In this document: positions 33,506 through 47,517 of the stretch, piece by piece | Layout: every line of letters begins with the position of its first letter | How positions within the stretch are numbered: position 1 is the stretch's first letter | Assembly: GCF_017348835.2 (NCBI RefSeq) | Contig: NZ_CP071375.1 | Source: Escherichia coli | Lineage (GTDB): Bacteria > Pseudomonadota > Gammaproteobacteria > Enterobacterales > Enterobacteriaceae | Length of the DNA: 64,000 bases | Direction: 5' to 3' (one strand) | Notes under the pieces: generated by a model | The model's database searches: none | The model's input: only the letters and a program-made list of their open reading frames with translations | Told to the model about the DNA's origin: nothing | Program-made: the position numbers and the translations under genes

Positions 33506-34012
33506 ATGCCTTAAACGGTTAACCACGGTCGAAATCTGACTGCAGGCTTGACTGCATGACCACAGCCACTGTGGATTGTCGCAACCGACCGCAAGCCACG
33601 AATAAGAACGACGGCGAATTTCGAATCGTTACCTGATGCACTGGCTTCCCAGCGTTTGACCGTAGCGTTAAGTAAATCAACAAAAGCGATGTTCACCGCT
33701 TTTCGTCAAGTCGTGCCATTTGTCAGCCAGGATCGGGTCTTTACCCCGGATATTGCAGCATCGCAAAAATTCTTAGAGGGATATGCTATAAATCAAAAAT
33801 AAAATCTTTGTTGATTGTTTATCATAATATCCACAGATATGATAAATGATATCAATTTAATAATTTTCACTTAATGTGATTCCGGATAATTCGAAAGGCG
33901 CTGTGCTTTTCGGATTATTATTATCTGATTAAGATATTTGTCACGCCAGGCTTACTGGTTTATAAATGTCAATCATGATTCTTATAAATTATTTATTGCT
34001 GCTTTGGTTACC

Positions 34013-34032
34013 ATTACTTCGTAATAAGTAAT
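34013..34032. promoter_or_regulatory. LysR-type operator (T-N11-A palindrome) upstream of the island LysR gene
   Basis: ATTACTTCGTAATAAGTAAT is a perfect inverted repeat of ATTACTT, 40 bp upstream of the LysR start codon. It sits inside a 350-bp AT-rich leader. Confidence 0.5.
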
Positions 34033-34072
34033 GTATTTTTGATTGTTTAAACTATTTTTAAGGGACGGCATT

Positions 34073-34978
34073 ATGCGAGGGAAAATACCTAAAACGGAAC
34101 TGCTGGTGACTTTTGAGGTCGTCGCACGTCATGAAAGTTATACCAGAGCGGCAGAGGAGTTAGCGTTAACCCAAAGTGCAGTATTCAGACAAGTAAGTGC
34201 GCTGGAGGAATTTTTACGTACTCCGTTATTTTCACACTCTAAAAAACGTATTTTTCTTAATGATGCAGGGAAGTATTACCTGGGGATAGTAAAAGAAACA
34301 TTAAATAAGCTGGAACGCGATACCAATACCATTATGACCTGGCAGCCTACGGTTCAGGTTATTGAACTTGCCGTTAATCCTACTTTTAGTACCCACTGGT
34401 TAATCCCAAATTTACATGAATTCACAAAGTTACATCCCGATATTATTGTTAATATTCATTCTTTAGCTAATAACGGCGATTTTCTTAATCGGGAGTACGA
34501 TGCTGTCATTATGCGCGAAAATTTTTGCGCGCCCTGGGCGGAAGTAGAATATCTCTTTGATGAGGAGATTTTGCCGGTATGCAGCGGCAGTTTGCTTGCA
34601 ATGTCCGATCAAAAACTGTCAGTGGCAGAACTGCTTACTGAGTTACCGCTTCTGCATCAAAGCACCCGTATTACTGGCTGGGAAGAGTGGTTTGCTTTAT
34701 CTGGCGTTAGCAGTCCGCTGGTCAATAACGGACCACGTTTCGATTTGCTATCAATGCTGATTGCCGCCGTGCGCTCTAATCTCGGCGTGGCGCTGTTACC
34801 ACGTTTCGCTATTCAACATGATTTGGATAGTGGCGATATGGTGATCCCCTGTGATGTGCCTATTCGTACCGGTAATCGTTTTATTATGACGTGGCAGGAA
34901 GAGAAGTCTGACTCACCGCACTTGCAGCAATTTCGTGAATGGTTGCTGGTGAAATCGGTCGTACCGCAGGAGATGTAA
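34073..34978 (+). CDS. LysR-family transcriptional regulator (island-encoded)
   Basis: Start at MRGKIPKTELLVTFEVVARHESYTRAAEELALTQSAVFRQVSALEEFL (HTH) with AAGGGA RBS. ~301 aa. The tracked ORF begins 30 nt earlier at 34043. Confidence 0.85.
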   Translation: MRGKIPKTELLVTFEVVARHESYTRAAEELALTQSAVFRQVSALEEFLRTPLFSHSKKRIFLNDAGKYYLGIVKETLNKLERDTNTIMTWQPTVQVIELAVNPTFSTHWLIPNLHEFTKLHPDIIVNIHSLANNGDFLNREYDAVIMRENFCAPWAEVEYLFDEEILPVCSGSLLAMSDQKLSVAELLTELPLLHQSTRITGWEEWFALSGVSSPLVNNGPRFDLLSMLIAAVRSNLGVALLPRFAIQHDLDSGDMVIPCDVPIRTGNRFIMTWQEEKSDSPHLQQFREWLLVKSVVPQEM

Positions 34979-34983
34979 AACCT

Positions 34984-35010
34984 GCGCCTGGCGGGATGCC
35001 AGGCGCAGTT
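34984..35010. terminator. Bidirectional hairpin between the convergent LysR gene and the btuR-like gene
   Basis: CCTGCGCCTGGCGGGATGCCAGGCGCAGG: a perfect 12-bp stem. Confidence 0.6.
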
Positions 35011-35011
35011 A

Positions 35012-44606: not shown

Positions 44607-45055
44607 CAGATTGCCTCTTCAAGAATGCGAGTATCAACGTCATGACGTTGGTTGATATCGTGGGCCATCAGCTGACAAACCTCTTCTAAGTCATGACTTG
44701 GGGCAAAGACGCGATCAAATCCCATCTCTTTGAACTTGTTTTCCACGTCAGCGAAGTCATGTTTTCCTACCACCAGGTTACCGCCCACATAGAGCAGGAT
44801 GTCCCCCAGTCCACGCTCGATGCAGCGTTCGCGCATGCCCAGACAGTCGATATCGCCATGCCCATAGATAGAGGAGACGACAATCGCGTCAGCGCCAGTT
44901 TCAATGGCAGCATCAATATATTCGTCCTGGCTGACCATTACGCCCAGATTAATGACTCTGAAGTCGTGGTTGCTAAAAACGCGGTCCAGAACTTTATTGC
45001 CTACTGCATGGCAGTCCGCGCCAATAACGCCAATCACAAGTGTTGCTTTCTTCAT
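44606..45055 (-). CDS. glmS: Glutamate mutase S/sigma subunit (B12-binding domain)
   Basis: Start at [27 protein letters not shown]... with AAAGGA RBS. Carries the DxHxxG cobalamin-binding motif (GADCHAVG). ~149 aa. The longer tracked ORF starts upstream in AT-rich DNA. Confidence 0.85.
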
Positions 45056-45613
45056 GGGTAATCCTTTGTAAGACAGAGAGTAAAATAAGTTACACACGTC
45101 GTATTTATGGCCGTTCATAACGGCACAGGTTTAATATCACAGGAGTGTCTTTATCTGACCGTAATGTTGCAATTGATCTATTTTCAAAATGTCTTTCGGG
45201 AAATGATTGTTTAAAGTGTGTTTTTAAATTTCCATGTTAATTCAGTGTGTTATGTCAACTAATGTCATGAATGTTAAATTTTTAAAATTAACTTGATTTG
45301 GTGTATTGAGATATTTGTGATCTACTTCTAATTTGCATTTTAGTGATATGGGTTTAGCCATAAGTAAATGCATTTCATAAAATTTAAGTCGAATTTCACT
45401 ACCATTCATTTCTGCTTAATGTAAAAGTAATGTTGAAAATAACAAATGGTTAATGATTAATGCGAATTATGACCTTCGTTAGCTCTTTTGATTTGCGTAA
45501 AAAAGAGAGATACATAGAGAGATACATGAAGGTGCTACCAGTATGAGTAATGTTATTTAAAGGTTTTATTACGTCTGGCAATAACGCAGGTCATTTTTCG
45601 CGACTGGGTGGGT

Positions 45614-46036
45614 TTAATCAGTATAATCCTCATACAATAGTTCAGGATTAACTGAACCGTTAACGGAGTTTTGATGTTGAAATTTAGAAATGGCGGAGTC
45701 AATCAATGAAGACAGTATTGAAAAAATAACTGTGTCAGAACTAATTTCAATTAATCCTTCTCGTTGCTGACCAAAAAAGATATTTATCTTGATTTCATTT
45801 GTACTACGGCAATCAATATGCAGTAATTTTTGATCGCTGAGATTTTCTGTTTCATAAATGTTTTTGGCGATAGTCGGATGTATTGATGCCAGACATCTGC
45901 TCAGATAAGCCAGATCCTTTAGGGAACACCCCGCTGAGTAGAGGATGTCAGAGAATTTTTGTGTGTCAACTGTTGGCTCTGAAGCGTATGTTGCATTGAC
46001 TGGAAGAGTATTGAAAGAGATCTGAGATGGTATCAT
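45614..46036 (-). CDS. Hypothetical acidic 140-aa protein in AT-rich DNA
   Basis: ORF with no recognisable motif. Roughly 18 D/E versus about 9 K/R/H (predicted acidic). Ser/Thr/Pro-rich N-terminus. Local GC ~35%. Confidence 0.5.
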   Translation of the reverse strand: MIPSQISFNTLPVNATYASEPTVDTQKFSDILYSAGCSLKDLAYLSRCLASIHPTIAKNIYETENLSDQKLLHIDCRSTNEIKINIFFGQQREGLIEISSDTVIFSILSSLIDSAISKFQHQNSVNGSVNPELLYEDYTD

Positions 46037-46117
46037 TATTTAAATCTTTCCGTGAGTAATAAAAATTAATCCCCAGGCATTGTTTAGCAATATTTGCCAT
46101 AGGGGATATATAGAAAA

Positions 46118-47062
46118 TTAAAGTATTTTATTGGCTTCGGTTAACTGATCTATAACCAGTGCCAGATTGGTAAACATTTTGAAAAAGCGATACTGGCTCG
46201 GAATATCTCTTTCAAAGACGAAACATTCAAGGTCATTGTTTGAAAAATAAAGGACTAGTGTTGCTGATTCGTCAGGGAAAACATGGAAATGTATCTGGTT
46301 ACCAGAAGGAGGATAGTCCAGAAGAAGGGTATCTTTGCCCGTCACATACCTGTTGTGGTCGTGGATGCTGCGCTCACACTTCATCAGAGGTGTCATGATA
46401 CTCATGTATTCATCTGATGTTAATATATTAAAATCACCATCCATTTTAAAGAAACGATAAAGTAACAGTATATCCTCTTGCGTAACCGGTTCGTTTGTTT
46501 TTAGAGGGAAATAAGTGGGAACCAGAAGATGAGGTTCTAATCTATTTTGTTGAGCGCTATAACTAAATTTGAACATAAATTCCGGATCGCTCATTAATTG
46601 AGTGACATAATTATGCCTGGCTTCAAAAATTTTAATTTTTATCAGGTTGAATAAGTCTGTTTCGTCATCCTGTATTAAAAGACATTGGCCATAGCCGCCA
46701 GGCTTTTTTTCATTATAAGCAGAAACGGTTATTCTGTCAGAGGTGTCAACGTTATATTCAAAAGCAAGATAGTGACCTTCTTCATCGCGATTTGTTTCCA
46801 GGTTATTTAAATTCATCACATGAAGTGTTTGCAATGCTGATTCAATGAGCTGTTGACTCTCTGGGGTAAATGTTTCGCGCTGCGTTGTATAAAGTGTATC
46901 AATTCCAACGACTATCCGATGTGGGTCAAGGATGGCGGCAATCATCTTTATTACCTGCACAGTCACGGGTGATGTCATTGATTCTTTATCTGTTTTTAGA
47001 GAATCATTAGATGGCCAACCTGAGAAGCGATTGACAGCCGAACCGATATTATCAGGACTCAT
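46118..47062 (-). CDS. Hypothetical 314-aa protein in AT-rich DNA
   Basis: Long ORF in a ~35-38% GC region. No motif recognised. No signal peptide or TM segments evident. Confidence 0.5.
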   Translation of the reverse strand: MSPDNIGSAVNRFSGWPSNDSLKTDKESMTSPVTVQVIKMIAAILDPHRIVVGIDTLYTTQRETFTPESQQLIESALQTLHVMNLNNLETNRDEEGHYLAFEYNVDTSDRITVSAYNEKKPGGYGQCLLIQDDETDLFNLIKIKIFEARHNYVTQLMSDPEFMFKFSYSAQQNRLEPHLLVPTYFPLKTNEPVTQEDILLLYRFFKMDGDFNILTSDEYMSIMTPLMKCERSIHDHNRYVTGKDTLLLDYPPSGNQIHFHVFPDESATLVLYFSNNDLECFVFERDIPSQYRFFKMFTNLALVIDQLTEANKIL

Positions 47063-47517
47063 AGCAGCAACCTCATTGTAATCAAGCGAGGCGCTGAGCG
47101 TACTCGGCTATAGAAAAACTAACTTGCAAAAATCGCTCATTTTTCATTTATCAGGCGAAAGTAGCCTCTGTTCACTCAGAAACAATCACTCCCGGTAAGT
47201 CATACCTGTTTCATCGATACATTTAAGTGATTATTACTAATGAAACAATAACATAACGGGCTTACGGTCGGTGCTCATAAAGGCAACAATCAATTAACTT
47301 TGATAAAAATATGTTATGTAAAATAGCAACAAATTGGCTACTCTAATCAATTGGTATTATAAAAAGTTGATTGGGCGGTTCTGTTAAATAAAACACTGGT
47401 TTTTTATCTATACCTTTTCATTGTAATAATTGTGTTGCATAAATATTTCACAATAAATTAACAATAAAATCACCAATGATCTATGGTTTATACATAATTA
47501 ACATATTTGGTTGTTTT

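Follow-up and report, generated by a model that had tools for sequence, protein, structure and literature searches.

A gene cluster for the methylaspartate pathway has been known in Escherichia coli since 2015, when Kronen and Berg described it in PLoS One and found it in 26.5% of E. coli and in 90.6% of O157:H7 (PMC4682846). The published cluster was drawn with GltP, CobA, a LysR-type transcriptional regulator (LTTR) and a DUF1446 gene that lies downstream of mal, the gene for 3-methylaspartate ammonia-lyase (MAL), and that was left unassigned. Citrate lyase, isocitrate lyase and methylisocitrate lyase were each found to have no citramalate lyase activity (PMC4682846), and the question posed in 2015 was how citramalate is disposed of in enterobacteria. 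The stretch described here is 64,000 nucleotides of E. coli (contig NZ_CP071375.1 of assembly GCF_017348835.2), referred to as the window, in which the interval between sucD and cydA carries this cluster. The cluster is therefore not a new finding. The interval is read, with a probability of roughly 80%, as an enterobacterial island for glutamate catabolism by the methylaspartate pathway, in which the terminal step would be catalyzed by a locally encoded citramalate lyase, CmlAB, and which would have a long history at a hot spot for variable gene content.

The cluster of the clostridia C. tetanomorphum and C. tetani (glmS-mutL-glmE-mal-mesAB-citDEF/CXG) carries out the same chemistry from glutamate to citramalate, with a homologous mutase, chaperone and MAL, and the GlmS and GlmE proteins of the window match clostridial structures. 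The mesaconase, in contrast, is a single-chain class I fumarase in the window and the two-subunit MesAB in clostridia. The clostridial lyase is an acyl carrier protein (ACP)-containing enzyme of the CitDEF type with CitCXG activation genes (PMC4682846), whereas CmlAB is an unrelated enzyme of two subunits. The regulator is of the LysR type here and of the GntR type in clostridia. CmlAB itself is represented by PDB entries 9ERQ and 9EVF, whose large and small subunits are matched by the products of two adjacent, overlapping genes of the window; the E. coli pair is known here from its sequence. In K-12, the same sucD-cydA hot spot holds mngR-mngAB, for a 2-O-alpha-mannosyl-D-glycerate phosphotransferase system and hydrolase, which is unrelated to the island in function and shares no homology with it, and the two are not mutually exclusive.

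Compared with the O157:H7 cluster, the window has the same gene set, order and locus, with 98.6% nucleotide identity over positions 32500-48500 and 98.5-100% identity of the island proteins. Over the same positions it is 100% identical to E. coli PE164, isolated from a pig in China. The 2015 study did not cover the DUF4387 gene, the polymorphism of the locus, the rtcB remnant or the element upstream of glmS that are described below (PMC4682846). Modest additions are made here: exact junctions, a history of deletion, a hot spot that proves to be multi-allelic, a six-gene module that spans phyla, a candidate operator for glmS and the misannotation of cmlA and cmlB. They do not amount to a new kind of system.

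A predicted local citramalate lyase

The DUF1446 gene of the published cluster is now annotated as "AtuA family" and is followed by a DUF4387 gene. The product of the first matches chain A of PDB 9ERQ/9EVF, which bears the name "Citramalate lyase, subunit A (cmlA)" in the deposition, with E=6e-292 and about 93% identity over 456 aa, and that of the second matches chain B, "Citramalate lyase, subunit B (cmlB)", with E=1.3e-56. The cmlAB genes of Raoultella planticola have been used to provide a lyase that converts citramalate directly to pyruvate and acetate, and in combination with FumA they allow for mesaconate-dependent growth of engineered E. coli (bioRxiv 10.64898/2026.01.16.699985). A citramalate lyase is thus predicted to be encoded locally, by the AtuA-like and DUF4387 genes. 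The initial annotation of the window had held that none was, and that the last step must come from elsewhere, for example from citrate lyase, or from the uncharacterised genes of the operon. The matches to both subunits overturn the first statement; the appeal to the uncharacterised genes was apt, and citrate lyase is excluded by the work of Kronen and Berg (PMC4682846). Profile searches of the 12 open reading frames (ORFs) of the cluster found no homologues of citD/E/F or citC/X/G. With CmlAB encoded in the operon, the route would run from glutamate to pyruvate and acetate, which would answer the 2015 question and make the route complete and energy-yielding.

The association of cmlAB with the pathway was followed through 80 cmlA loci, obtained by a scan with a CmlA profile of one genome per species and then searched with the window proteins by tblastn. 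The cmlB gene directly follows cmlA in 78 of them and mal precedes cmlA in 76. Glutamate mutase genes are also present in most (glmE in 72, glmL in 67 and glmS in 64, with gaps mostly at contig ends), and the order is invariably glmS-L-E-mal-cmlA-cmlB. A class I fumarase lies inside 47 of the 80 loci, mostly immediately downstream of cmlB. The loci come from Enterobacterales, Aeromonas, Propionivibrio, Telmatospirillum, Riflebacteria, Spirochaetes, Aminicenantes/Acidobacteriota, Victivallaceae, Sedimentisphaerales and Holophaga. Linkage conserved over such a range of phyla is a strong guilt-by-association argument that CmlAB belongs to the pathway. Only two of the 80 loci, at 57% identity, lack both mal and glm genes. 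These are from gammaproteobacterial metagenome-assembled genomes (MAGs) of Haliea and Pseudomonadales (loci L084 and L085), with no mal or glm gene within 10 kb of cmlA/cmlB, and some CmlAB-like pairs may therefore operate outside the methylaspartate pathway.

Public annotation does not reflect this function. NCBIfam holds no model for CmlA or CmlB, and among those of the best 120 of 6555 homologues that carry a source name, none is termed citramalate lyase, and the name "methylaspartate ammonia-lyase" is wrongly given to several. Given the RefSeq and NCBIfam labels of "AtuA family" and "DUF4387", and the ammonia-lyase label that cmlA bears in some sources, automated metabolic reconstructions will go on treating the pathway as incomplete.

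Glutamate mutase, ammonia-lyase, mesaconase and accessory genes

The ORF listing and profile searches show that the sucD-cydA interval includes a gene for an LTTR and nine intact genes on the minus strand, transcribed in the order glmS-glmL-glmE-mal-cmlA-cmlB-DAACS-fumD-cobO (Table 1). With the exception of the AtuA/DUF4387 pair, all of the enzyme genes exceed the cutoff of a curated NCBIfam equivalog model. GlmS and GlmE are predicted to form an adenosylcobalamin (AdoCbl)-dependent mutase that converts glutamate to methylaspartate. The base-off/His-on motif DxHxxG is present in GlmS as DCHAVG and aligns with the same motif of the clostridial protein in PDB 1I9C_A, and GlmE matches the clostridial structure PDB 6H9E_B with E=3e-189. 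The glmL gene lies between glmS and glmE, as expected for a MutL-type accessory gene. MAL carries both the MAAL_N and MAAL_C domains (PF05034 and PF07476) and is about 94% identical over its full length of 413 aa to the solved enterobacterial MAL of PDB 1KKO; the O157:H7 enzyme is active in vivo when expressed.

The class I fumarase scores below the FumA model (915 vs a cutoff of 1105) and below NF011920 (915 vs 1094), and thus matches neither the FumA nor the FumB model. It is 98.5% identical to its O157:H7 orthologue, with eight amino acid differences. The O157:H7 FumD has been named as an extra fumarase and favours mesaconate over fumarate (PMC4682846), and the allele of the window is likewise predicted to be a mesaconase/fumarase of the FumD type, which makes up a third group of class I paralogs in E. 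coli.

The carrier falls below the cutoffs of both the DctA model (314 vs 513) and the GltP model NF008440 (303 vs 638), such that the assignment is at the family level, to PF00375. It is presumed to import glutamate. The cobO gene is a second copy: the housekeeping copy elsewhere is about 69% identical at the nucleotide level, and 5422 of 5426 E. coli genomes have a match. PE164 has two cobO places, and genomes that lack the island have the housekeeping copy only.

Therefore, most of what the initial annotation had seen in this interval held up. It had described a methylaspartate-pathway island between sucD and cydA, with glmS, glmL, glmE and MAL, a FumD-type fumarase as in O157:H7-like strains, its own DAACS transporter and LysR regulator, and a dedicated BtuR paralog. 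Each of these families was matched in the searches. Its proposal of translational coupling at the glm junctions stands in part. The glmS/glmL junction is TGATG and the glmE/mal junction is TAATG, but glmL and glmE are separated by 18 nt. Further along the operon, mal and cmlA are 3 nt apart, cmlA and cmlB overlap by 4 nt (ATGA), and 9 nt separate fumD from cobO, which with the glmS/glmL and glmE/mal junctions makes five places of tight coupling; larger gaps occur between cmlB and the DAACS gene (160 nt) and between the DAACS gene and fumD (107 nt).

Table 1. Features of the sucD-cydA interval of the window, in order of position; scores are in bits, with model cutoffs after "vs".
Feature	Position	Strand	Basis
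Terminator in the sucD 3' untranslated region, last backbone element	33482..33506	+	7-bp stem then TTTTTT
RtcB-family pseudogene remnant, just inside the left junction	33510..33667	-	tblastn, blastn
LysR-type regulator, 301 aa	34073..34978	+	PF00126, 64; PF03466, 97
GC-rich hairpin of 11 bp where the LysR and cobO genes converge, resembling a bidirectional terminator	34982..35008	.	hairpin scan
cobO/btuR paralog, cob(I)alamin adenosyltransferase	35012..35614	-	NF004637, 296 vs 185; TIGR00708, 247 vs 168
fumD, class I fumarase (predicted mesaconate to (S)-citramalate)	35624..37276	-	NF011921, 1271 vs 1060
DAACS (sodium/proton:dicarboxylate-amino acid) symporter	37384..38664	-	PF00375, 343
Perfect 15-bp hairpin in the cmlB-DAACS spacer	38709..38742	-	minimum free energy fold, 15-pair stem; whole spacer z=-2.9
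cmlB, predicted citramalate lyase small subunit (DUF4387)	38825..39142	-	PF14330; PDB 9ERQ/9EVF chain B
cmlA, predicted large subunit of citramalate lyase; "AtuA family" in current annotation, DUF1446 in earlier	39139..40509	-	PDB 9ERQ/9EVF chain A
mal, 3-methylaspartate ammonia-lyase	40513..41754	-	TIGR01502, 545 vs 286
glmE, glutamate (methylaspartate) mutase E subunit	41754..43199	-	TIGR01503, 866 vs 390
glmL (mutL), mutase accessory/reactivating protein	43218..44606	-	NF040745, 509 vs 475; TIGR01319, 890
glmS, glutamate mutase B12-binding S subunit	44606..45055	-	NF002612, 253 vs 110; TIGR01501, 245 vs 136
20-bp element TTTGAAAATAGATCAATTGC, core TGA-N7-TCA (T-N11-A), lying 114-133 nt before the glmS ATG	45169..45188	-	alignment
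Second conserved block aAGA-N6-TCACAAA, about 125 nt further upstream	45311..45331	-	alignment of glmS upstream regions
AT-rich orphan ORF, 140 aa	45614..46036	-	pN/pS 0.09-0.22
AT-rich orphan ORF, 314 aa	46118..47062	-	pN/pS 0.38-0.46
cydA upstream region common to K-12-type loci, right backbone edge	47492..47864	+	TPR-type loci share from 47227

Distribution in E. coli and history of the sucD-cydA site

The operon is present, at a coverage of at least 80%, in 1117 of 5426 complete E. coli genomes (20.6%, compared with the 26.5% of E. coli reported in PMC4682846), and mngRAB is present in 3864. When the 5426 genomes were queried with a chimera of cmlA and mngA, about 130 records contained both genes, and 552 genomes contained neither.

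The flanks of the interval are sucC/sucD at 31371-33406 (+) and cydA at 47865-49436 (+). Homology between the window and K-12-type loci extends to 33513 on the sucD side and begins again at 47492, 373 nt upstream of cydA. The segment missing from K-12-type loci is 33510-47491, or 13,982 bp, which replaces the bounds of 33507-47100 proposed initially. The hot spot is multi-allelic, which makes it useful in strain typing. Arrangements include mngRAB only (K-12 type), mngRAB with a TPR gene, a TPR gene only, and the island only, as in the window and O157:H7. Strain MEI003 has mngRAB-rtcB-island, and strain A34 has the same order with an internal deletion from the LysR gene to cmlA. Strain E2348/69 has mngR-mngA'-ISEc13-glmS-orphans, in which an ISEc13-mediated deletion has left glmS.

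The initial annotation placed the island at the site where K-12 has mngR-mngAB, and took it to be a horizontal acquisition that had replaced those genes. The absence of mng genes was borne out: MngR, MngA and MngB have no tblastn match across the whole window, and the chromosome of PE164, which is identical to the window over the 16 kb compared, is without any mngA-like DNA. O157:H7 likewise has the island where K-12 has mngRAB, and the ends of the island are AT-rich. Replacement is nonetheless unlikely, given that 118-130 genomes, including MEI003, carry both mngRAB and the island with rtcB between them; the mngB-rtcB-LysR junction itself was found in 118 E. coli genomes. Loci of the K-12 type run collinear with MEI003 exactly as far as the mngB stop, and then diverge into a non-homologous spacer of 473 bp before they rejoin the window. 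It is therefore this spacer, not mngRAB, to which the island is allelic.

The window also retains a frameshifted rtcB stump left by a deletion. With the intact RtcB of strain A34 as the tblastn query, this remnant at the left junction matches residues 451-465 and 355-398 (E=9e-8); in blastn it falls into pieces of 91-92% identity, with 173 bp deleted internally and 1 nt inserted. The sucD terminator is joined to rtcB codon 464 at 33509/33510, with the removal of mngR, mngA, mngB and the rtcB stop, and the parental sequences at this join share only an imperfect match of 4-5 nt. Since the rtcB stump lies at the join, the change ran from both modules to the island only, and the lineage of the window appears to have lost mngRAB and most of rtcB through a separate deletion of 5.6 kb. 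Divergence inside the island (97.8-98.3% identity) is equal to that of the flanks (97.2-98.1%), which also argues against a recent replacement. No integrase or recombinase ORF, tRNA or flanking direct repeat was found in the island, and a mobile integrative element was ruled out on that basis.

The island is best seen as one form of an old allelic polymorphism rather than as the result of a recent exchange with mngRAB, and the fullest order in E. coli would be sucD-mngRAB-rtcB-island-2 orphans-cydA. That the acquisition is old, as the initial annotation had also suggested, is supported by Citrobacter, Salmonella enterica subsp. arizonae and diarizonae, and Pseudescherichia, in which sucD and cydA bracket the island as well; in a Klebsiella locus the cydA flank is seen. 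Loci of the K-12 and TPR types yielded no trace of the island, and their alternative cassettes are non-homologous, such that K-12 is not demonstrated to be a deletion derivative.

Several other features of the site were observed. The RtcB-family gene is intact at locus L006 (7614-9011, -), where it encodes an atypical protein of 465 aa that falls below all NCBIfam RtcB cutoffs; it is divergent from the LysR gene in strains with both mngRAB and the island, and is absent from the islands of other genera. The 3' end of mngB in island-bearing genomes (locus L002, 6900-7470) has only about 84.5% identity to its K-12-type counterpart, and 3178 records place that allele in a band of 80-90% identity. 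This divergence is far above what the remaining locus shows, and points to an old recombination breakpoint at the end of mngB. In MEI003, a tandem duplication of 341 bp (locus L002, 20896-21574) matches window positions 45378-45718 and makes a small partial "hypothetical protein". The distal part of the region upstream of cydA varies by locus type, with 373 proximal nt shared with the window by K-12-type loci and 638 nt by TPR-type loci (window 47227-47864; locus L005, 7470-7942; locus L004, 7460-9761). An uncultured Enterobacter MAG has mngR-mngA-mngB on the cydA side of the island, opposite to E. coli (locus L020, 1-5117), and Citrobacter sp. ANG330 has mngR and mngB fragments on that side (locus L007, 4593-5013). 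Therefore, the two modules have been arranged independently in different genera.

Proposed pathway and alternative readings

In the proposed pathway, L-glutamate would be imported by the DAACS carrier and rearranged to (2S,3S)-3-methylaspartate by the AdoCbl-dependent GlmS/GlmE mutase, with GlmL as a reactivating chaperone and with CobO to adenosylate scavenged corrinoid. E. coli is not known to synthesise B12 de novo, and the corrinoid must therefore be scavenged. MAL would convert methylaspartate to mesaconate and NH4+, FumD would hydrate mesaconate to (S)-citramalate, and CmlAB would cleave citramalate directly to pyruvate and acetate, with no need for coenzyme A or ACP, as the preprint states for the Raoultella enzyme. 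By the standard mixed-acid metabolism of E. coli, pyruvate could then pass through PFL, Pta and AckA, for a redox-neutral and ATP-yielding conversion of glutamate to NH4+, two acetate and formate. The LTTR would act some 120 nt upstream of glmS, at a conserved T-N11-A element within a region of 32% GC that is likely silenced.

A number of points weigh against this interpretation. Extracts of O157:H7 ATCC 700728 had neither MAL nor citramalate lyase activity, and the strain did not grow on glutamate (PMC4682846). Since MAL activity was also lacking, the operon was not expressed in the assayed cells under the conditions used. The function of CmlAB is taken from the molecule names given by the depositors of the structures and from one preprint on the 93%-identical Raoultella enzyme; a literature search found no primary paper on CmlAB. 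The carrier passes neither the GltP nor the DctA cutoff, and glutamate would be its substrate by inference. The LTTR gene is convergent rather than divergent with respect to the operon, which makes the operon a putative target, and the gene is divergent relative to rtcB in strains that combine mngRAB with the island. Finally, with mngRAB on the other side of the island in the Enterobacter MAG, the order of events at the hot spot differs between genera.

It is also possible that the island is a cryptic, decaying relic that has no present function in E. coli and is heading for loss, as in K-12. No expression was seen under any laboratory condition tried (PMC4682846), the island is missing from about 80% of complete genomes, A34 and E2348/69 carry partial deletions, and the promoter region is very AT-rich. 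This is improbable in view of the selection on the genes. The ten genes are intact in the window and in 1117 genomes, and comparison with O157:H7 and MEI003 over about 3,500 codons gives a ratio of nonsynonymous to synonymous polymorphism (pN/pS) of 0.08 with a pS of 0.04-0.06, as is typical of strong purifying selection. An operator-like element is also invariant across genera, and the gene order is conserved across phyla. The AT-rich promoter region would fit with silence in the laboratory, possibly with involvement of H-NS.

Alternatively, the true substrate could be an imported C5-dicarboxylate such as mesaconate, citramalate or methylaspartate, with a marginal role for the mutase. The transporter is slightly nearer to DctA, a C4-dicarboxylate carrier, than to GltP, and FumD and CmlAB alone would permit growth on mesaconate, as was engineered in bioRxiv 10.64898/2026.01.16.699985. 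However, three mutase genes and a dedicated adenosyltransferase gene are under strong purifying selection and glmSLE is linked with mal-cmlAB in 64-72 of the 80 loci, such that this reading is quite unlikely. Least probable is that the pathway ends at secreted (S)-citramalate or mesaconate, perhaps directed at the host, as Kronen and Berg raised for O157:H7 extracts that lack citramalate lyase activity (PMC4682846), and that the AtuA-like/DUF4387 pair, still so labelled in public annotation, does something else: the pair is about 93% identical to the deposited lyase subunits and has been used as such in vivo, it is translationally coupled to mal and co-occurs with mal and glm genes in 76 of 80 loci, and the negative assays were of cells in which the operon was not expressed.

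If the interval is a glutamate catabolic island that ends in CmlAB, a broader proposal can be made, although tentatively and at somewhat less than even odds. About 20% of E. coli, including O157:H7, would carry a complete, self-contained corrinoid-dependent fermentation of glutamate that is switched on by the LTTR through the TGA-N7-TCA element at 45169-45188, serves as a trait of gut life and is patchy by deletion. Glutamate would yield ammonium, acetate and pyruvate, with ATP from acetate kinase, by a pathway that is silent in the laboratory. Fitness in the gut would then rely on B12 cross-feeding, as for ethanolamine utilisation, and repeated deletion from an ancestral sucD-mngRAB-rtcB-island-cydA order, rather than gain, would explain the patchiness. 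In short, the analysis sharpens testable hypotheses on the B12-dependent use of glutamate by enterohaemorrhagic and other gut E. coli.

Candidate regulatory elements

The LTTR scores 220 against a cutoff of 288 for the GcvA subfamily model and passes the cutoff of no named equivalog. Its gene converges on the 3' end of the operon. By tblastn, 27 of the 80 cmlA loci have a LysR homologue; the 30 loci from Enterobacterales and Aeromonas account for 25 of these. In Propionivibrio, the homologue is divergent from and adjoins glmS. Most non-enterobacterial loci (L040-L086) have, in place of the LysR gene, a GntR-type helix-turn-helix regulator about 700-1200 nt upstream of glmS, which matches the N-terminus of MngR at 37-47% identity. 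The presence of a GntR-type regulator in these loci agrees with that reported for clostridial clusters (PMC4682846).

The generic binding site of an LTTR is T-N11-A, and the TGA-N7-TCA core of TTTGAAAATAGATCAATTGC fits it. The element occurs once in the window, where 0.01 would be expected by chance, and is found exactly in 23 loci of five genera (Escherichia, Citrobacter, Salmonella, Enterobacter and Pseudescherichia), with one copy in each, always upstream of glmS. Klebsiella, Buttiauxella, Aeromonas and another two loci of Pseudescherichia have forms with one mismatch, and the core is retained in Yersinia. Morganella loci have neither the element nor the LysR gene. Aligned across eight genera, the region upstream of glmS has a mean column identity of 57% and is poorly conserved around the element. 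Therefore, TTTGAAAATAGATCAATTGC is proposed as a candidate operator of the linked LTTR. The conserved block further upstream resembles a CRP half-site, although a role for CRP is speculative. A 20-nt repeat, TGATTGTTTAAA..., upstream of both the LysR gene and glmS was considered as a shared operator and rejected, given that it is unconserved outside of E. coli and varies in O157:H7; it is treated as due to chance.

The hairpin in the cmlB-DAACS spacer has no clean U-tract after its stem. It may be an internal attenuator, may stabilise the upstream transcript, or may split the operon into glmSLE-mal-cmlAB and DAACS-fumD-cobO. The terminator downstream of sucD, at the edge of the backbone, matches no Rfam model, including that for SdhX; we take it to be sdhX by K-12 naming. 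An Rfam scan of positions 33000-48200 at E<=0.1 returned nothing, and in particular no B12 riboswitch. Consensus scans for promoters and terminators gave hits no more frequently than in shuffled sequence, and only the sucD terminator and the hairpin between the LysR and cobO genes were retained from them.

Base composition and orphan reading frames

The GC content of the operon is 50.9%, equal to that of the backbone and in keeping with the figure of near 50% given initially for the core of the island. The accompanying claim that GC drops only near cydA has to be revised, since the island is AT-rich at both ends. The left flank with the rtcB stump (33510-34072) has a GC content of 38%, compared with 31.9% for the glmS upstream region (45056-45613), 37.3% for the segment with two orphan ORFs (45614-47062) and 32.9% for 47063-47491.

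Neither of the orphan ORFs has a match in Pfam, NCBIfam, PADLOC or PHROG, and neither was found by tblastn in the cmlA loci of organisms other than E. coli. The 314-aa ORF has five homologous protein clusters among 5.8 billion sequences, the sole named one of which is from E. coli, and its AlphaFold2 model has a predicted local distance difference test score of 43, which is too low for searching by fold. The pN/pS values in Table 1 suggest that both ORFs are coding. They probably constitute a separate module that is not part of the pathway, and both are kept in E2348/69 after the loss of most of the island.

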